Shown here: positions 7,059-47,468 of the stretch, in pieces | Layout: each line of letters starts with the position of its first letter | How positions within the stretch are numbered: position 1 is the first letter of the stretch | Assembly: GCA_030639555.1 (NCBI GenBank) | Contig: DAOWCM010000001.1 | Coordinates: 1-50,547, forward strand | Direction: 5' to 3' | Source: Candidatus Eiseniibacteriota bacterium | GTDB lineage: Bacteria > Joyebacterota > Joyebacteria > Joyebacterales > Joyebacteraceae | Length of the DNA stretch: 50,547 nucleotides | Made by a program: the position numbers and the translations under genes | The notes under the pieces: model-generated | Told to the model about the DNA's origin: nothing | What the model saw: the letters and a program-made list of their open reading frames with translations, nothing else | The model's database searches: none

Positions 7059-8300
7059 ATGCCGTTCATCCAGGCTGCACTCACCACCGCGCTCGTGTGG
7101 CGCAACGGACAGGCCGACACCGTCCAGAAGGATGGATACGACGCACTGCTGCGGGGCCTCGTGACCTGGTTGGCCGGCAAGGCATCCCTCTCCGTCTCGT
7201 ACGTTGGCACGGGCGACGGACAGATCGACAACCTCGACGGCGGCGTCGGGACCCCGACGGAGACGTGGACGATCACTCTGACGAGCGCGACGACCTTCAC
7301 GGTGTCCGGCTCCGTCAGCGGCGCCCAGCCGGCCGGTACGGTCGGTGTGGCGTACACGACCACCGGCGACCCACTCACCTCCCTCCTCTCCTTCACCATC
7401 TTCGCAGGCGCCACTCCGTTCATCGCGACGGATGTGTTCACAGTCCTCGCGACTGTGAGCTCGCTGCCCGCGTTCGACACGTGGGTGCTCGACCGCTGGG
7501 ACCCGAACGCCGACCTGTCGGACATAGACGAGGCCCTCATCTGGCACGGGCTCGGCGACAGTACCGAGGCGATCCACTGCGGCATCCGGCTGACCGCGAC
7601 TCCCGCGTCCCAGATATGGAACTGGGTCCACCGCAACTATACCGGCTTCTCACCCTCGGAGAGCTTCGAGACGCAGCCGGGGCAGTCCGGCACGGACGTG
7701 TTCACGGCGTTCTGGGACGCCGACATGACGTACTGGTTTTCAGGGAATTCCCGCCGGTACATCGTTTCTGCAAAGGTGAGTACGACTTTTCACGCGTTCT
7801 ACCAGGGGCTGTTCCTTCCGTTCGGCTCCCCGGCCGAGTATCCGTTCCCCAGCGTCGTGATCGCAGAGAAGGACGATGAGGAGGCGTGGAACTCGACTAA
7901 CGCGGGCTTCGGCGTGTTCCTCGAGGGCAGGCCCGGACACGGCCGCCTCCGCGGGGTGGACGGCGTGTGGCTCTCGGTGCAGAACGGTTTCGACCTGAAC
8001 TCTGTGAACATGTGGCCGAACGACTCGAGCTTTGGATCGAGCGGGTTCATGTGGGACAACCACGAGAACCACGCGACGGGGGACCACCAGTTGTTCCCGC
8101 TCATGCTGCACCAGCACCCGTCCCCGACCACCACCCCGCTCACCGGCAACGTCCTGGGCGTGCTCGACGGGGCGAACATCGTGACCGGGTTCGGCAACTC
8201 GTCCGAGACGATCCTCAGCATCGGCGGCACGGACTGGGTGGTGTTCCAGGACATCTTCCGTACCCTGCGAGAGTCCTTCTGGGCGATGGAGATGGCATAA
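7059..8300 (+). CDS. Tail-tip associated structural protein, unknown family (paralogue A)
   Basis: 413-aa ORF between the tape measure and the Dit-like gene. It shares RY...F.G and C-terminal I.IGG.dW.VF motifs with the next gene. Confidence 0.4.
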   Translation: MPFIQAALTTALVWRNGQADTVQKDGYDALLRGLVTWLAGKASLSVSYVGTGDGQIDNLDGGVGTPTETWTITLTSATTFTVSGSVSGAQPAGTVGVAYTTTGDPLTSLLSFTIFAGATPFIATDVFTVLATVSSLPAFDTWVLDRWDPNADLSDIDEALIWHGLGDSTEAIHCGIRLTATPASQIWNWVHRNYTGFSPSESFETQPGQSGTDVFTAFWDADMTYWFSGNSRRYIVSAKVSTTFHAFYQGLFLPFGSPAEYPFPSVVIAEKDDEEAWNSTNAGFGVFLEGRPGHGRLRGVDGVWLSVQNGFDLNSVNMWPNDSSFGSSGFMWDNHENHATGDHQLFPLMLHQHPSPTTTPLTGNVLGVLDGANIVTGFGNSSETILSIGGTDWVVFQDIFRTLRESFWAMEMA

Positions 8301-36633: not shown

Positions 36634-36672
36634 ATGCGCTCCCTTCGGCCCTCGGCGGCCGCCTCAGCGGTG

Positions 36673-36688
36673 TGCAAATCGCGGGCCA
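36673..36688 (-). promoter_or_regulatory. Sigma-54-type promoter (TGGCCC-GCGAT-TTGCA)
   Basis: The minus-strand read matches TGGCAC-N5-TTGCW at 10 of 11 defined positions. It lies about 40 nt upstream of the TTG start at 36633, in the 129-nt divergent intergenic region. Confidence 0.5.
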
Positions 36689-36762
36689 AGAGAAAGTTCC
36701 CAGATAAGCTCAAGATCCTGCGCCCGCGAACCGATGAGAAGAATGTCACTTCAGGAGAGCCA

Positions 36763-37311
36763 ATGCAACAGCCAATTTGCACGCGGTGCACAGAACTCGA
36801 GGCAGAGATTGAGCGCCTCAGCCGGGACCCCGTCACGGGGCTCGCAGGGCGCGCGGTGTTCGACCAGATGATAGGGCTCGAGTTCTCCCGCGCCAAGCGC
36901 ACAGGGGCCTCCCTGGGCGTCCTGATGCTTGATCTGGACCACTTCAAGGCGGTGAACGACGCCCTCGGCCACCTCGAGGGCGACAAGGTTCTGGCGCGCG
37001 TGGGCCGGGTGCTTCGTGCAAGCGTGCGCGGATCGGACACCGCCGCGCGCTACGGCGGAGAGGAATTCGTGGTCCTGGTCAGTGCGACAAGCCCGGAGGG
37101 CCTTCGCGTCCTGGCGGAAAGAATACGAAAACGCATCGAGCGAGTCGGCCTGGCAACAGACCCCGCCCCCTATACGGTGAGCATCGGGTGCGCGTGTATT
37201 CACCCGGGCGACAAGGAGGGGCTGCAGATCGTGGAGCGCGCGGACGCGGCGCTGTACACCGCCAAGGAGACGGGCAGGAACAAGGTTTGCATGGCGGAGG
37301 GGGCAGAGTGA
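36763..37311 (+). CDS. Stand-alone GGDEF diguanylate cyclase (no sensor domain)
   Basis: The ATG lies 4 nt after RBS AGGAGAG. 182 aa with DPVTGL, LDLDHFKAVND, GHLEGD, RYGGEEF, an I-site RGSD five residues before GGEEF, and ADAALYTAKETGRNKV. The N-terminus has CTRC plus a short coiled coil. Confidence 0.85.
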   Translation: MQQPICTRCTELEAEIERLSRDPVTGLAGRAVFDQMIGLEFSRAKRTGASLGVLMLDLDHFKAVNDALGHLEGDKVLARVGRVLRASVRGSDTAARYGGEEFVVLVSATSPEGLRVLAERIRKRIERVGLATDPAPYTVSIGCACIHPGDKEGLQIVERADAALYTAKETGRNKVCMAEGAE

Positions 37312-37493
37312 TGGGAAAAATGATCATATCCGCCGCATTCGCCGCGGCGTTTATCGCCCTCATGTCCTGTGCGATCGAGCCGCTGCCGGTGACGGGCACG
37401 AACCACGTGGAGCGCTGCGCCGCGGAGTGCGACCCCCGGGCCCTGATCTACGTCGACTTCACGACGGATCCGCCGGGATGCCTCTGCAAATGA
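37311..37493 (+). CDS. Mini-lipoprotein (60 aa)
   Basis: The ATG overlaps the GGDEF TGA (TGATG). The signal/lipobox is AAFIALMSC. The mature part has 4 further Cys (CAAEC, CLC). Confidence 0.5.
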   Translation: MGKMIISAAFAAAFIALMSCAIEPLPVTGTNHVERCAAECDPRALIYVDFTTDPPGCLCK

Positions 37494-37702
37494 GTAGCTC
37501 GAGGTCGTCCAGCAAGAGCTTCTCGAAGTTGATCCGCGCGGCACTCCGCCAAGGGTGGACGCACGACCGAACCAGCAAGGGGCACCACCGGCTTCGATCG
37601 CCGAACGGGAACGTGGTGTACATGTCTAGCTCACCTCGGTGCGAGTCGGAGGTGTACAAGAAGATCCTCTGCAGACTCAAGAAGGAAGGATTCACGGGAT
37701 GA
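37490..37702 (+). CDS. hicA: HicA/YcfA-like protein (putative mRNA interferase)
   Basis: It has an ATGA overlap with the upstream gene. 70 aa. KLIRAALRQGWTHDRTSKGHHRLRSPNG...YKKILCRLKKEGF fits the HicA pattern (GW..., GSHH-like His, C-terminal I...L...G). Confidence 0.55.
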   Translation: MSSSRSSSKSFSKLIRAALRQGWTHDRTSKGHHRLRSPNGNVVYMSSSPRCESEVYKKILCRLKKEGFTG

Positions 37703-37983
37703 AACGCCAGTTCTTCTACTTCAAGTTCATCCACCGCCCCGAGTACGGCGAGTCCCGCCTCGAGGTGGAGGGGAACACCGAAGGCATCGTGTCCATCACG
37801 GACATCGAGGAGGAGCGGGTGTACGAGGGGATCTTGCCGCGCGGGCCGTACAAGAAGGTGGACGGCGAGGTCCAGAAGGTCGACATCGGCATCCTAGACC
37901 TGCCCGCACTGATTCACATGCTGCAGCTCGTCGTCAAGACGAGCGAGAAGGCACCGAAGAAAGTATTCGGGAAAGGAGATTGA
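37699..37983 (+). CDS. Hypothetical protein in the HicB (antitoxin) position
   Basis: It has an ATGA overlap with the HicA-like gene. 94 aa. I recognise no HicB or HTH motif, so the call rests on position only. Confidence 0.3.
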   Translation: MKRQFFYFKFIHRPEYGESRLEVEGNTEGIVSITDIEEERVYEGILPRGPYKKVDGEVQKVDIGILDLPALIHMLQLVVKTSEKAPKKVFGKGD

Positions 37984-39212
37984 TGGTCAACCTAACCCCT
38001 GCCCAGGCCCGCGTCGTCGACCAGGTCCGCGACTGGATCCGCACCGGAACGAACCAGAGCTTCTCGCTCGCCGGTTACGCCGGCACGGGCAAGACGACCC
38101 TGATCCGCTGGCTCGTCGAGGCCGCGAATGAGCGCGTGCACTGCTGCACCCCTACCGGGAAGGCGGCCGCGGTCCTCGAGTCGAAGATGCCCAAGGGCAC
38201 GAAGGTGTCGACCATCCACTCGTTCCTGTACCAGCCCCTCGAGATCACCGAGCGCGAGGTCGAGCTCGCCCGCAAGGTGCGGGACGAGCTGAAGGAGACC
38301 TGCAAGGTCGACCCCCGGTTCCGCGAGGAGTACGTCGCCGCGGTGCACCGCCTCAGGAAGATCGAGAAGATGTTCGACGAGAAGCAGTGCGACTTCATCG
38401 ACCGCGCGGACCCCAACTTCGCGCCGTTCGTCATCGTGGACGAGGCCAGCATGGTCAACGCGGGCATGGAGACCGACCTGCGCCGGTGCGCCGGGAAGAT
38501 CCTGTTCGTCGGGGATCCCGGGCAGCTCCCGCCCGTCGAAGGCACCGAGTTCTTCGGCCGCAACCAGCCGGACGCCGCGCTCGAGGAGATCCACCGGCAG
38601 GCCGCCGACTCGACGATCCTGCGCCTGGCGACCTCCATCCGCCTGGGCGAGCGCTTCGACGACTGGGACGACTCGTGCGCGCTGGTCCGCGACCTCTCGG
38701 TCGGCGAGCTGGTGAACGCCGACCAGATCATCACCGGGAGGAACGTCACCCGCCGCCGGCTCAACACCGACGTGCGCCGCAACCTCGGCTACGGCGAGAA
38801 GTACCCCGAGATGGGCGAGCGGGTTATGTGCCTGCGCAACGACAACGGGCGCGGCCTGATCAACGGCATCGGCGGCACCACCTCGACGGCCGCAAGTCTC
38901 GACACGTTCGGAGACCTGCGGGCCGACGTGGTGTACGAGGGGCGCGTGTTCAAGAACCTGGTGATCGACCCGTTCCCGTTCATGCTGTACGACGACCCGA
39001 AGCTGAACCGCCGGGAATTTCACTCGGACGGGTCGCAGTTCGACTTCGGCTACGCGGTCACCGTGCACAAGGCCCAGGGTTCCGAGTGGCCGCACGTGGT
39101 GGTGTGGGACGACAAGATGCGCCGCAACGACGAGGAGCACCGGCGGCGCTGGACATACACGGCGGCCACCCGGGCCAGCGACAAGCTGACCTGGGTGAAC
39201 GCGGGGAGATAA
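37983..39212 (+). CDS. SF1B helicase (RecD / Dda / Pif1-like)
   Basis: The ATG at 37983 overlaps the upstream TGA. Motifs are Walker A GYAGTGKTT, Walker B VIVDEASMV, FVGDPGQLPPV and AVTVHKAQGSEW. Confidence 0.85.
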   Translation: MVNLTPAQARVVDQVRDWIRTGTNQSFSLAGYAGTGKTTLIRWLVEAANERVHCCTPTGKAAAVLESKMPKGTKVSTIHSFLYQPLEITEREVELARKVRDELKETCKVDPRFREEYVAAVHRLRKIEKMFDEKQCDFIDRADPNFAPFVIVDEASMVNAGMETDLRRCAGKILFVGDPGQLPPVEGTEFFGRNQPDAALEEIHRQAADSTILRLATSIRLGERFDDWDDSCALVRDLSVGELVNADQIITGRNVTRRRLNTDVRRNLGYGEKYPEMGERVMCLRNDNGRGLINGIGGTTSTAASLDTFGDLRADVVYEGRVFKNLVIDPFPFMLYDDPKLNRREFHSDGSQFDFGYAVTVHKAQGSEWPHVVVWDDKMRRNDEEHRRRWTYTAATRASDKLTWVNAGR

Positions 39213-40437: not shown

Positions 40438-40835
40438 GCGAGATCGTCTACGAGCGAGAGTCCCGCGGGTACTACGACGAGAAAGGCCGCAAGCTCGACT
40501 GCGTTGAGTGCAACGGCTCGTCCCGCCTCGTGTACCCGGACGGCTCCGTGCTCGACGATGCCCGCGACTGCTACACGTGCGGCGGGACCGGCTGGCAGCC
40601 GCCCGCCCGCGATCCCGACGCGCAGTGCACCGGGTGCAAGCGGCCGCTCTGGATCGGCGTCCGCGGCCCGAAGTGGTTCTCACTCGGCAGCGGCCCGATC
40701 GACGAAATGTCCGAGCCGACGTGCAGCCACTGCCTGCGCCGCCGCAAGTTCGAGCGACGGCACCCGGAGTTTGCAGCGCCCGATTCCAACGAGATCACGC
40801 TGGATGACTTCAATCCGAGGAGAGATAACACATGA
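40434..40835 (+). CDS. Multi-CxxC zinc-finger protein (133 aa)
   Basis: ATGA overlap. It has CVECNGS, CYTCGGTG (DnaJ-type CxxCxGxG), CTGC and CSHC. Confidence 0.45.
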   Translation: MSEIVYERESRGYYDEKGRKLDCVECNGSSRLVYPDGSVLDDARDCYTCGGTGWQPPARDPDAQCTGCKRPLWIGVRGPKWFSLGSGPIDEMSEPTCSHCLRRRKFERRHPEFAAPDSNEITLDDFNPRRDNT

Positions 40836-41119
40836 AGCACTACGACATACTGTTCGACGGCCCCCCGTCGCACGAGTCCGGGCGGTTCGTGGAAGTCAAC
40901 GACGAGACCGGGGGCAGCATCTGCATCGGGGAGTGGGTGGAGCGCGACGACGGCCTGTGGGCGCTGCGGATCCCCAACTACGCCGATGTCGAGGAGGCCG
41001 CCCGGGACCTGTATGACAATCGGCTGGGGTGGTCGCACGGGCGCAATCCCTACGCCCCGCCGGAATTCTGGGAGGCGCTACGCAAGTCCCTCGACGCACT
41101 GAAAGGAGACGACCGATGA
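40832..41119 (+). CDS. Hypothetical protein (95 aa)
   Basis: ATGA overlap with the upstream gene. Acidic protein. Confidence 0.45.
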   Translation: MKHYDILFDGPPSHESGRFVEVNDETGGSICIGEWVERDDGLWALRIPNYADVEEAARDLYDNRLGWSHGRNPYAPPEFWEALRKSLDALKGDDR

Positions 41120-44592: not shown

Positions 44593-44738
44593 ACCTGACC
44601 GAGGTGATCGCCGTCCTGATCAAGGTCGACGGCCGGTGGAAGTGCTACAAGCACCCGAACTACGGCGTGCACCGCGCGCCAACGTCCGACTGCAAGGCGT
44701 GCAGCCTGCTCTGGATGGAGAAGGAGTCCACGAAATGA
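44589..44738 (+). CDS. Mini zinc-ribbon-like ORF (49 aa, below the track cut-off)
   Basis: Hand translated. It has a GTGA overlap upstream and an ATGA overlap with rtcB downstream. It contains CYKH...CKAC. Confidence 0.35.
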   Translation: MNLTEVIAVLIKVDGRWKCYKHPNYGVHRAPTSDCKACSLLWMEKESTK

Positions 44739-45937
44739 GAGTCATCGAGCCACGCAGAGTCGCGGAGAGGGAACGAATCGTCGCAGCGTCACCGATCAAG
44801 GTCTGGGACGAAGGCGTGACCATCGACGTCAATGCCCGGAGGCAGATCGCTGACACAGCGGAGCTCCCCTTCATCCACAGCCACGTTGCCGTCATGCCCG
44901 ACGCTCACTTCGGCTTCGGCTCCACCGTCGGCACGGTCATCCCGACGCGGGGTGCCATCGTCCCCTCCGCGGTCGGCGTCGACATCGGCTGCGGCATGGT
45001 GGCCCAGCGCCTCGAGATGACCAGCCGGCGCCTGCCGGACAACCTCGAGGGCGTGTACGACGCGATCATGGAGGCCGTGCCCGTCGGATTCAACGCCCAC
45101 GAGGAACCGATCGGCGTCTACTTCACCGCGCACGACCGGGGTTACGTGGAGATCGCGGAAGCCGGTCTGTGGAATGCGCGGCAAGACCCCGGGCGCCAGG
45201 TCGGGACGCTCGGCGGGGGAAACCACTTCATCGAGCTGTGCATCGACGAGTCAGACGCCGTGTGGGTAATGTTGCACAGCGGCAGCCGCGGCCTGGGCAA
45301 CCGGGTCGGGCGCCACTTCATCGAGTTGGCCAAGCGTGAGTGCGAGCGGTGGATGATCGAGCTCCCGAATCGCGACCTGGCCTACCTGCCCGAGGGCACC
45401 GATGGATTCATCGCCTACGTGAACGCCTTGTCGTTCTGCCAGGACTACGCCGCGCTGAACCGCAAGGTCATGATGGACCTGGCACTAAGTGCACTCGCCG
45501 ACCAGCTCGGATCGTTCACCTACGACGGCGAGCAGGCGATCAACTGCCACCACAACTACGTGGAGCGCGAGCATCACTTCGGGCAGAACGTGTGGGTGAC
45601 GCGCAAGGGCGCCGTCCGAGCCCGCGAGGGTGACATGGGGATCATCCCCGGTGCCATGGGCCGGCGGTCCTTCATCGTGCGCGGGAAGGGCAACGCAGAC
45701 AGCTTCCATAGCTGCTCGCACGGCGGGGGCCGCGTCATGTCGCGCACCGAGGCGCGGAAGACCCTCACCCTCGAGGATCACGAGCGGGACACGGAGGGCC
45801 TGGTGTGCCGCAAGGACGCAGGCGTGATCGACGAGTCGCCCCGGGCGTACAAGGACATCAACGCCGTGATGGCGGCGCAGGCCGACTTAGTTGACGTCGT
45901 GCACACACTGCGCGCCGTCGTCTGCGTGAAAGGATAG
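44735..45937 (+). CDS. rtcB: RNA 3'-phosphate/5'-OH ligase RtcB
   Basis: The start is at MRVIEP (ATG 44735). 400 aa with MPDAHFGFG, DIGCGM, GGGNHFIE, HSGSRGLGN and CHHNY (the guanylylated His region). Confidence 0.9.
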   Translation: MRVIEPRRVAERERIVAASPIKVWDEGVTIDVNARRQIADTAELPFIHSHVAVMPDAHFGFGSTVGTVIPTRGAIVPSAVGVDIGCGMVAQRLEMTSRRLPDNLEGVYDAIMEAVPVGFNAHEEPIGVYFTAHDRGYVEIAEAGLWNARQDPGRQVGTLGGGNHFIELCIDESDAVWVMLHSGSRGLGNRVGRHFIELAKRECERWMIELPNRDLAYLPEGTDGFIAYVNALSFCQDYAALNRKVMMDLALSALADQLGSFTYDGEQAINCHHNYVEREHHFGQNVWVTRKGAVRAREGDMGIIPGAMGRRSFIVRGKGNADSFHSCSHGGGRVMSRTEARKTLTLEDHERDTEGLVCRKDAGVIDESPRAYKDINAVMAAQADLVDVVHTLRAVVCVKG

Positions 45938-46144: not shown

Positions 46145-46494
46145 ACAAGTGGCCGCCGGAGATGCTGGAGGAGCTGCTCGACACTATCATGCACCGGGCG
46201 ATCCTCATGGCCGCGATCGAGGAGCCCGGCCGACGCTACGGCGATCCGTGTCGCCAGTTCTACGCCGGCCCGCCCCTAGACATGGAGTTCGCCGAGGAGC
46301 ACGCCCGGTACGTGACCGCCTGGGCCGAGACCCAGGTCGTCACCGTGAACATCAACAGCCAGGAGGTGGAGGGCAGCCCCGAGGCGATCCGCAACATGGC
46401 ACGCCAGGAGTGCATGCAGAAGTACATCGCACGAGAGATGCGCGACCGGGCCGAAGACTTGGCGCGATCCATATTCATGGGAGGCAAGGTATGA
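46132..46494 (+). CDS. Hypothetical protein (120 aa)
   Basis: The ATG at 46132 overlaps the upstream gene by 13 nt. Helical and acidic. Confidence 0.45.
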   Translation: MALLDKWPPEMLEELLDTIMHRAILMAAIEEPGRRYGDPCRQFYAGPPLDMEFAEEHARYVTAWAETQVVTVNINSQEVEGSPEAIRNMARQECMQKYIAREMRDRAEDLARSIFMGGKV

Positions 46495-47468
46495 TGAAGA
46501 ACGAACACACGATAGTCCGAATGCAGTTCGGATCCCAGGTCTACGGCACGAGCCTGCCGACGAGCGACCAAGACTTCAAGGTGGTGTTCATACCCGACGG
46601 GCGGGACATCCTCCTGGGCCGCGCGACGAAGGTGTCGCGCTCGAGCTCCACGAAGGTCGATACCCGCGCCCGCAACACGGCCGACGACATCGACGTGGAG
46701 GCGTTCTCCTACGCCGGGTTCCTGAGGCTGCTGTCCGAGGGGCAGACCGTCGCCACGGACATGCTGTTCATCCCAAAGCGGCACTACACGTCCGTGGGGT
46801 TCGAGTGGGGCCACATCCAAGACTGCCGGCACATCCTCGTGTCGCGCCGCATCTCCGGCTTCGTCGGGTACTGCAAGGCGCAGGCGAACAAGTACGGCAT
46901 CAAGGGTAGCCGCGTGAACGCCGCCGACGCGATCGTCAAGCTGCTCGAGAGCCTCCCGCCGGACAACCGCCTGGGGGACCACGAGGGCCACCTCGTGCAC
47001 TTCTGCGAGGATCACGAGCACGCGGAGATGATCCACATCCCCACGTCGGCGGGCAGTGACATCCCGCACCTGTCGGTGTGCAACCGCAAACAGTCGCTGA
47101 CCGTCAAGGTCAAGTACGCGCTGTCGCAGTACCGCGAGCTGTGGGACAAGTACGGCGAGCGGGCCCGCCAGGCCGCCGCGAACGAGGGCATCGACTGGAA
47201 GGCGCTCATGCACGCCGTGCGGATCGGGTGCCAGGCGCACGAGCTGCTCGCGACCGGGCACGTCACGTTCCCGCGCCCCGAAGCTCCGCTCCTCCTGAAG
47301 ATCCGAAAGGGCGAGCTGGCGTACTCCGCGGTGGCCGAGCTGATCGAGGAGAGCATGAATTCCCTCGAGGGCGCCCAGGAGACCTCGGTGCTGCCCAAGG
47401 AGCCGGACCAGGCGCTGATCGACGAGCTGATCACGGAGACGTACCGGAGCGCGATCACGTGTTCGTAG
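46491..47468 (+). CDS. Pol-beta-superfamily nucleotidyltransferase, RlaP-like (RNA-ligase-associated, PF10127-type)
   Basis: ATGA overlap. 325 aa. N-terminal FGSQVYGTSLPTSDQDFKVVFIP is the GS-x-YG-x(5-6)-SD-x-D NTase signature of this family. It has a long helical C-terminal domain. Confidence 0.6.
   Translation: MMKNEHTIVRMQFGSQVYGTSLPTSDQDFKVVFIPDGRDILLGRATKVSRSSSTKVDTRARNTADDIDVEAFSYAGFLRLLSEGQTVATDMLFIPKRHYTSVGFEWGHIQDCRHILVSRRISGFVGYCKAQANKYGIKGSRVNAADAIVKLLESLPPDNRLGDHEGHLVHFCEDHEHAEMIHIPTSAGSDIPHLSVCNRKQSLTVKVKYALSQYRELWDKYGERARQAAANEGIDWKALMHAVRIGCQAHELLATGHVTFPRPEAPLLLKIRKGELAYSAVAELIEESMNSLEGAQETSVLPKEPDQALIDELITETYRSAITCS

Follow-up and report, generated by a model that had tools for sequence, protein, structure and literature searches.

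A predicted stand-alone GGDEF cyclase is encoded next to an A1-like gene in a group of aquatic siphophages

The window analysed here is a stretch of 50,547 nucleotides of phage DNA (contig DAOWCM010000001.1 of assembly GCA_030639555.1, deposited as a Candidatus Eiseniibacteriota bacterium). Positions 36763-37983 of its forward strand hold four overlapping genes, g1 to g4, and a helicase gene follows. g1 encodes a predicted GGDEF diguanylate cyclase that lacks a sensor domain, g2 a predicted lipoprotein, g3 a HicA-like protein and g4 an ORFan. An earlier note on this DNA placed these genes and proposed that all four form one linked module. Comparison with related loci reveals a different arrangement. 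The conserved feature is the pairing of the GGDEF gene with an A1-like gene that lies upstream on the opposite strand, whereas g2, g3 and g4 occupy a variable region and are accessory genes specific to one clade. The pairing is taken as the conserved unit because relatives whose A1-like protein is 45-59% identical keep the GGDEF gene without g2, g3 and g4. On balance, we lean towards reading the locus as an early, constitutively dimeric and product-inhibited cyclase that would raise the cyclic di-GMP (c-di-GMP) level of the host, followed by independent accessory genes.

The GGDEF gene is paired with the A1-like gene

Relatives of the locus were gathered by exact-protein look-ups together with protein and locus searches, and are designated by L numbers. 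Homologues of the A1-like gene, with 45-90% protein identity, stand beside a GGDEF gene in L044, L045, L050, L060, L061, L062 and L009. The deeper relatives L060, L061 and L062, whose A1-like proteins are 59%, 55% and 45% identical, encode a stand-alone GGDEF protein of about 180-220 residues that is 43-47% identical to g1 and is divergent from the A1-like gene. The GGDEF gene of L009/L063 (A1 50%) is co-directional and located 2.6 kb upstream. No g2, g3 or g4 was detected by tblastn in L060, L061, L062 or L009, and profile searches with g2 and g3 over 43 GGDEF- or A1-bearing loci (680 kb) found nothing. Loci with an A1 homologue of 31-34% identity contain no GGDEF gene. A search of IMG/VR with the A1-like alignment returned a single contig, which was already known.

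The four genes are found together only in a clade with A1-like proteins of 77-90% identity, and even there g4 is lost or displaced in some lineages. The linked four-gene module of the earlier note, and the co-conservation that would go with it, thus do not extend beyond this narrow clade.

L009 contains an unrelated small protein gene in the same operon (7405-7662), about 1 kb downstream of the GGDEF gene. The N terminus of its product resembles a twin-arginine signal ('RRDFLK'), and a lipobox-like 'AVAAC' comes next. Judging from these predicted signals, small exported proteins may be a recurring element of the region around the GGDEF gene.

Gene order in the close clade

The close clade comprises five lineages, the window, L044, L045, L046 and L050. 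The window displays the A1-like gene divergent from g1, g2, g3, g4 and the helicase gene, in this order. L044 contains one additional gene, for a 67-residue protein, between g4 and the helicase gene. L045 lacks g4, although its g3 is 89% identical; there, g3 is followed by genes for a 75-residue transmembrane (TM) protein and a 64-residue protein, and then by the helicase gene. The sequences of L046-48, starting from g1, have an 82-residue TM protein encoded between g3 and g4 and a 90-residue protein between g4 and the helicase. L050 carries a DUF8317 gene between the A1-like gene and g1, and its g4 is separated from g3 by a 79-nt gap and followed by other genes. The gap between g4 and the helicase gene is therefore filled by different genes among the relatives.

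The protein encoded directly after g3 in L045 (2825-3052) and L046 (575-823; also in L047 and L048) is variable and 75-82 residues long. It possesses an N-terminal TM helix and a 'VVR[KR]PL[GS]DCTC' motif, and is absent from the window. L050 is a 4-kb contig (JAZGCL010000125.1, GCA_036476955.1) in a metagenome-assembled genome labelled Acidobacteriota; the label is probably a binning artefact and not evidence of the host.

The overlaps in the window, TGATG at 37309-37313 (g1/g2) and ATGA at 37490-37493 (g2/g3) and 37699-37702 (g3/g4), lie exactly where the earlier note located them. The note also regarded this translational coupling as the mark of a module. Overlaps of 1 or 4 nt are present at about 17 of the 24 junctions of the operon, and the unrelated genes inserted in relatives are joined by a -4 overlap every time. 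For this reason, translational coupling is a general habit of the operon and not a sign of a four-gene unit.

The ratio of nonsynonymous to synonymous substitution rates (dN/dS) against relatives is 0.1-0.57 for the four genes and 0.34-0.37 for the helicase gene. g1 to g4 are constrained about as much as the helicase gene, indicating that all four are genuine protein-coding genes under purifying selection.

g1 is a predicted canonical cyclase with a minimal N terminus

g1 matches the Pfam GGDEF family (PF00990) over profile positions 3-161 of 161 with 152 bits against a cut-off of 23.8, and TIGR00254 with 161.6 bits against a cut-off of 37.4 (Table 1). Comparison with the PDB gives the Marinobacter GGDEF structure 3ign (E = 2.9e-38), and the key residues align to solved cyclases. 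The protein contains the motifs LDLDHFKAVND, GHLEGD, RGSD and RYGGEEF. Residues D57, K62, N65, D66, H70 and D74 and the GGEEF at 98-102 are invariant in eight phage homologues of 41-87% identity; the metal-binding aspartate, KxxND, GHxxGD, RxxD and GG[D/E]EF are thus all preserved down to 41% identity. The inhibitory site (I-site), R89-G-S-D92, is followed by TAARY-GGEEF, placing RxxD five residues before the active site (A-site), and both R89 and D92 are invariant. According to established GGDEF biochemistry, the aspartate of GHxxGD marks an enzyme specific for guanosine triphosphate (GTP), not a Hypr variant with serine at this position. The profile scores and the motif alignment of the eight homologues bear out the earlier description of g1 as a canonical GTP-type GGDEF cyclase with an I-site and no sensor domain, a prediction made from sequence. 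g1 has a dN/dS of 0.24-0.33.

About 20 residues precede the GGDEF domain. As previously noted, they comprise only a CxxC motif (C6-x-x-C9; 36778-36789) and a short coiled coil of about two heptads, including LEAEIERLS. From residue 11 onwards, g1 aligns with the GCN4-WspR fusion 3i5c, which is reportedly an active cyclase, and its N-terminal residues fall on the GCN4 zipper. A short coiled coil goes with the CxxC motif, which is kept in the clade (L044, L045 and L050) and in L061. Where CxxC is missing, in L060, L009 and L062, the homologue has one or two extra heptads, 3-3.5 in all. This distribution suggests that CxxC may serve as a metal- or disulfide-mediated dimer clamp replacing part of the zipper.

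g1 resembles zipper-activated and stand-alone cyclases (3i5c, 3ign and the domains of PleD and WspR) in its full domain, GGEEF and RxxD motifs, Mg-binding aspartate, guanine-specifying asparagine and aspartate, and short N-terminal coiled coil. However, it is a virulent-phage gene product without a receiver or sensor domain, its N terminus in this clade has a CxxC motif in place of extra heptads, and its cyclase activity is a prediction. g1 also matches GGDEF families of phages in PHROG (phrog_5594, 14602, 11823, 9661 and others) with E values of 4e-48 to 1e-28. These profiles span 274-693 positions and include N-terminal extensions, and g1 matches their C-terminal 160 positions only. All of the families are annotated as 'unknown function', and to our knowledge none is linked to an A1-like gene.

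A GGDEF match occurs in 169 records out of 50,697 from phages; many of the 169 look like host contigs. GGDEF domains are uncommon in phages, in line with the earlier statement that diguanylate cyclases are rare there.

g2 is a predicted mini-lipoprotein

The g2 product contains a PS51257-like lipobox that ends at Cys20 after a hydrophobic stretch, in all five of the homologues. This pattern agrees with its earlier assignment as a probable lipoprotein. The mature peptide would be 41 residues long, with four further invariant cysteines and five or six prolines. The n-region has K3 in the window, L045 and L050, and begins with MGN without lysine or arginine in L044 and L046. The dN/dS is 0.24-0.50. 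g2 has no match in Pfam, PHROG, NCBIfam or PADLOC, and no relatives beyond the clade were found in the IMG/VR protein scan or in a metagenome scan with the g2 alignment.

g2 recalls several small phage lipoproteins, T5 Llp, phi80 and N15 Cor, TP-J34 Ltp and lambda Rz1. Like them, it is tiny, carries a lipobox, is rich in cysteine and proline, and is probably expressed during infection. It differs in matching no family by sequence or profile and in not lying beside a receptor-binding protein gene; its neighbours are the GGDEF and HicA-like genes within a replication-gene operon. It differs from outer-membrane spanins (o-spanins) such as lambda Rz1 in that no lysis cassette is adjacent and no gene for an inner-membrane spanin overlaps it, and the o-spanin assignment was rejected on this gene context. 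An upstream, class-2 HicB-like antitoxin was also considered for g2 and rejected, given its hydrophobic signal peptide, lipobox and conserved cysteine pattern.

By analogy with the phage lipoproteins, g2 could act at the envelope as an exported, disulfide-stabilised mini-lipoprotein, with receptor masking or superinfection exclusion as its most plausible role.

g3 has a predicted HicA fold and lacks the usual partner

g3 encodes a basic protein with an isoelectric point (pI) of 10.7. Its score against Pfam HicA_toxin (PF07927) is 19.6 bits, under the cut-off of 27 bits. The same family matches all five clade members below the cut-off, with a best E value of 2.1e-5. The HicA-like model of PADLOC is matched over the full length (Table 1). 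A search of the PDB with the g3 profile places 1whz, 4c26 and 6g26 among the top matches, at marginal E values of 0.04-0.7. The AlphaFold2 (AF2) model, computed with 14 sequences, has a predicted local distance difference test (pLDDT) score of 82.6 and adopts an alpha-beta-beta-beta-alpha topology like that of a dsRBD, composed of helix 7-20, strands 24-27, 33-36 and 42-45, and helix 52-65. Its top PDB match in Foldseek is 1whz (probability 0.91, TM-score 0.55), and its best viral matches in BFVD are annotated 'HicA-like toxin' (TM-score 0.77, probability 1.00). His32 aligns with the catalytic His24 of Burkholderia pseudomallei HicA (4c26 is the H24A mutant) and is invariant in 14 members of the g3 family. 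The model and the profile matches indicate that g3 adopts the fold of HicA and bears a histidine at the catalytic position, and support its earlier identification as a HicA-like protein with a conserved histidine.

g3 shares with HicA proteins (Adephagia gp91, 4c26 and 1whz of T. thermophilus) a length of about 70 residues, basic character, the predicted fold and the histidine at the catalytic position. Mycobacteriophage Adephagia encodes gp91 as a toxin and gp90 as the protein that neutralises it (PMC11373665). g3 differs from HicAB systems by having no adjacent HicB or conserved partner and a sub-cut-off Pfam score, and by its location in a lytic-phage operon. Furthermore, the upstream glycine of the G-x-H motif lies in a different register from that of HicA.

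g3 is 50-89% identical among the relatives, with a dN/dS of 0.10-0.44 and preserved start and stop overlaps. Public gene calls on most contigs skip g3 and give a 54-residue antisense open reading frame (ORF) instead (37459-37623 of the window, minus strand). The guanine-plus-cytosine (GC) content at third codon positions cannot tell the g3 strand from the antisense strand, on which frames are open as expected at 65% GC. Since these antisense frames stay open, g3 is easily missed by gene callers. The antisense ORF as the real gene in place of g3 was rejected on homology, dN/dS and overlap geometry.

No relatives of g3 were found by a single-protein scan of IMG/VR or by tblastn against the 50,697 phage records. 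The wider g3 family, at 31-46% identity, occurs on other high-GC phage contigs and on Solirubrobacterales chromosomes. None of these distant loci (L051, L054-L059 and L068-L071) has a GGDEF gene or g2 nearby. In 6 of the 11 distant loci, the next overlapping gene encodes a conserved domain of about 100-130 residues with no Pfam or PDB match, and a 'REAERQGW...GH' motif is present in the g3-family proteins of these cassettes. The link between GGDEF and HicA-like proteins made in the earlier note is thus not seen in the wider family, whose members pair with a different partner. This usual partner is absent from the window and g3 has no HicB match there, leaving g3 without a cognate partner.

Distant family members match the PADLOC model PDC-M06A, and the partner in L051 has a helix-turn-helix-like tail matching PDC-M06B (1e-8). 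Their likeness to the PDC-M06 system, a HicA-like A protein with a B partner, lies in these distant members and the L051 partner, and overlapping two-gene cassettes of this kind are found on Solirubrobacterales chromosomes and in phages. g3 of the window, in contrast, matches the generic HicA-like model only, and no B-type partner is present. The cassettes (Table 1) may represent a family of HicA-like toxins with non-HicB antitoxins. g3 itself could help to take over the host, as an orphan that cleaves or binds RNA in the manner of HicA; a lytic phage needs no antitoxin.

g4 is restricted to the clade

Homologues of g4, of 65-82% identity, exist only within the clade. An hmmsearch against 1.84 billion representative proteins retrieved g4 itself only, and an IMG/VR scan revealed no relatives. 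g4 has no match in Pfam, PHROG, PDB, NCBIfam or PADLOC and no HicB features. The AF2 model consists of six strands and a C-terminal helix at low confidence (pLDDT 51.9), too poor for a structure search. The protein is near neutral, with a pI of 6.1, and its dN/dS is 0.32-0.57. The possibility that g4 is a diverged copy of the usual downstream partner of the g3 family was rejected (hhalign probability 0.1). The earlier note was right that g4 lacks HicB features; its placement of g4 in an antitoxin slot finds little support in the relatives, as L045 lacks g4 and L046-48 have it displaced.

The phage and its operon

Elsewhere, the window contains genes for a tape measure protein, tail proteins, a DNA polymerase, a primase-helicase, an exonuclease, RtcB and a nucleotidyltransferase, and its GC content is 65%. 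Identical copies of g1 are present on one contig of 87.7 kb and on shorter contigs. The contigs with identical g1 derive from South China Sea Site-F cold-seep metagenomes (PMC9357000). These features fit a siphophage that has a genome of about 88 kb and carries its own genes for replication. They also fit a virulent lifestyle, as polymerase, primase-helicase, exonuclease and tail proteins are all encoded by the phage itself. The hints of the host are weak nucleotide similarities to genes of Dinoroseobacter, Erythrobacter and Caulobacter phages.

The divergent region between the A1-like gene and g1 would presumably hold early promoters for both the A1-like gene and the GGDEF operon. The start codon of g1 is preceded, at 6 nt, by an AGGAG-like Shine-Dalgarno sequence. 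A promoter and terminator scan yielded nothing of use in this region. Scans found no sigma-70 match of the E. coli type and no terminator within the operon, and no transfer RNA gene.

Two further parts of the window deserve mention. An RtcB-type RNA ligase gene (44636-45937; phrog_1075, 1.5e-138) is followed by a nucleotidyltransferase gene (46149-47468; phrog_388). The two resemble an RNA-repair pair and lie in the same rightward gene block as g3. The gene at 40832-41119 encodes a 95-residue protein ('MKHYDILFDGPP...'). Over about 130 bp, its nucleotide sequence is 71-79% identical to hypothetical genes in Rhodococcus phage E3 and in several phages of Gordonia. It also resembles a 71-residue ORF in L061. 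It is a small phage gene unusually well kept across distant hosts.

Table 1. Positions of the locus features in the window and of the g3-family cassettes in other loci.
Feature	Position	Strand	Evidence or remark
A1-like 'DNA transfer protein' gene, 547 residues	34990-36633	-	phrog_1745, E = 8.6e-112; weak metallophosphoesterase match
Divergent intergenic region, 129 bp	36634-36762	.	Sole non-coding gap here
g1, predicted stand-alone GGDEF diguanylate cyclase, 182 residues	36763-37311	+	Pfam GGDEF, E = 1.6e-44; TIGR00254, E = 1.4e-47
g2, predicted lipoprotein, 60 residues	37311-37493	+	Lipobox pattern, Cys20
g3, predicted HicA/YcfA-fold protein, 70 residues	37490-37702	+	PADLOC HicA-like, E = 3.4e-8; fold matches
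g4, clade-restricted ORFan, 94 residues	37699-37983	+	No family match; homologues 65-82% identical
g5, Dda/RecD-like superfamily 1 helicase, same operon	37983-39212	+	phrog_325, 2.4e-83; Pfam AAA_30, UvrD_C_2
g3-family two-gene cassette	L068:3043-3629		
g3-family two-gene cassette	L069:2995-3578		
g3-family two-gene cassette	L070:2995-3578		
g3-family two-gene cassette	L058:3995-4577		
g3-family two-gene cassette	L055:5001-5509		
g3-family two-gene cassette	L051:5001-5834		

Proposed role of the cyclase and alternative explanations

In the reading we lean towards, g1 would be expressed early in infection, driven by promoters in the divergent region. The short N-terminal zipper, perhaps clamped by CxxC, would pair two GGDEF domains without sensory input, and the dimer would make c-di-GMP from GTP upon expression. 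The intact RxxD I-site would cap the c-di-GMP level by product inhibition. Because the I-site is retained, g1 is read as a signalling enzyme and not as a means of bulk GTP depletion. The infected cell would be pushed into a high-c-di-GMP state, in which motility and pili would be turned off and the synthesis of exopolysaccharide or adhesins turned on. In an alphaproteobacterial host, CckA could be driven into phosphatase mode and CtrA cleared, producing a cell-cycle switch. These host-side effects are extrapolated from general c-di-GMP biology. The phage might replicate better in a cell of this state, or rival phages might be blocked.

Several points weigh against this proposal. The cyclase activity and expression of g1 are predictions, its early timing is suggested only by its position and the analogy with A1 of phage T5, and the downstream effects of c-di-GMP in the host are conjecture. 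The lipoprotein status of g2 is predicted from a pattern match. g3 keeps the histidine at the catalytic position, yet no antitoxin accompanies it, which the proposal does not account for; gp91 of Adephagia, a homologous HicA-like protein, shows high toxicity when it is expressed by itself (PMC11373665). Finally, each of the five sampled lineages has g1, g2 and g3 side by side with the same overlaps, and the g1/g2 and g2/g3 junctions are untouched while those between the A1-like gene and g1, g3 and g4, and g4 and the helicase gene have all changed. A functional trio would also show such contiguity, but with lineages this close and so few events it is weak evidence.

A functional trio of g1, g2 and g3, without g4, might act jointly, for example in superinfection exclusion or through gating of the HicA-like RNase by c-di-GMP. 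It would account for the -1 and -4 overlaps that remain unbroken in the window, L045, L044, L046 and L050, for the insertions and deletions that fall at the other three junctions instead, and for the purifying selection on all three genes. However, these lineages are shallow, with A1-like proteins of 77-90% identity, and the contiguity may be mere inheritance. The four deeper relatives keep the GGDEF gene without g2 and g3, the distant g3-family loci listed above have neither a GGDEF gene nor g2 nearby, and the g2 and g3 profiles are silent across the 43 loci searched. No c-di-GMP-binding motif is evident in g3. Joint action of the three genes is considered unlikely. The stricter proposal that the invariant block is one unit, in which c-di-GMP controls or cooperates with a mini-lipoprotein of the envelope and an orphan RNase of the HicA type, is very unlikely. 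Examples of such a unit would be a toxin gated by c-di-GMP or a superinfection-exclusion device made of three parts. We know of no described link between a cyclase and a HicA-fold protein.

It is similarly improbable that the GGDEF enzyme mainly counters host cyclic-nucleotide immunity, as a decoy or competitor source of nucleotides, and not c-di-GMP physiology. g1 is conserved, sensor-less and probably early in a virulent phage, as such a function would suggest, and nucleotide-signalling arms races are well documented, for instance Panoptes (PMC12657218). The GHxxGD aspartate and the I-site, however, point to ordinary, self-limited c-di-GMP synthesis, and g1 has no match among the PADLOC models. 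It also counts against this explanation that we know of no defence system silenced by c-di-GMP.

A phage-borne toxin-antitoxin pair, with g3 as a HicA-type toxin and g4 as a novel non-HicB antitoxin, is hardly to be expected: g4 overlaps the stop codon of g3 (ATGA) in the window and L044, g3 is basic and keeps its catalytic-position histidine, the g3 family elsewhere has an overlapping downstream partner gene and antitoxin swapping is common, but L045 has its closely similar g3 and no g4, the TM-protein gene in L046-48 and the gap in L050 separate the two genes, and g4, which is not markedly acidic, resembles neither the usual partner nor HicB nor any other family.

Implications

Phage GGDEF proteins (at least eight PHROG families of unknown function), routinely annotated phage HicA-like toxins and small phage lipoproteins are already known. 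Searches of the literature brought up phage-encoded diguanylate cyclases as annotations only and no study of their function. The modestly new element is a minimal sensor-less cyclase, as predicted, that is conserved beside an A1-like gene across a phage group. The four-gene module, which would be the more striking result, is not supported by comparison of the loci. Aquatic siphophages with A1-like proteins as little as 45% identical still have the cyclase, with its I-site, next to the A1-like gene, suggesting that setting the c-di-GMP level of the host is a selected takeover step for these phages. From g1 it could be learned how a second messenger serves a virulent phage in acting on the motility, envelope or cell cycle of its host.

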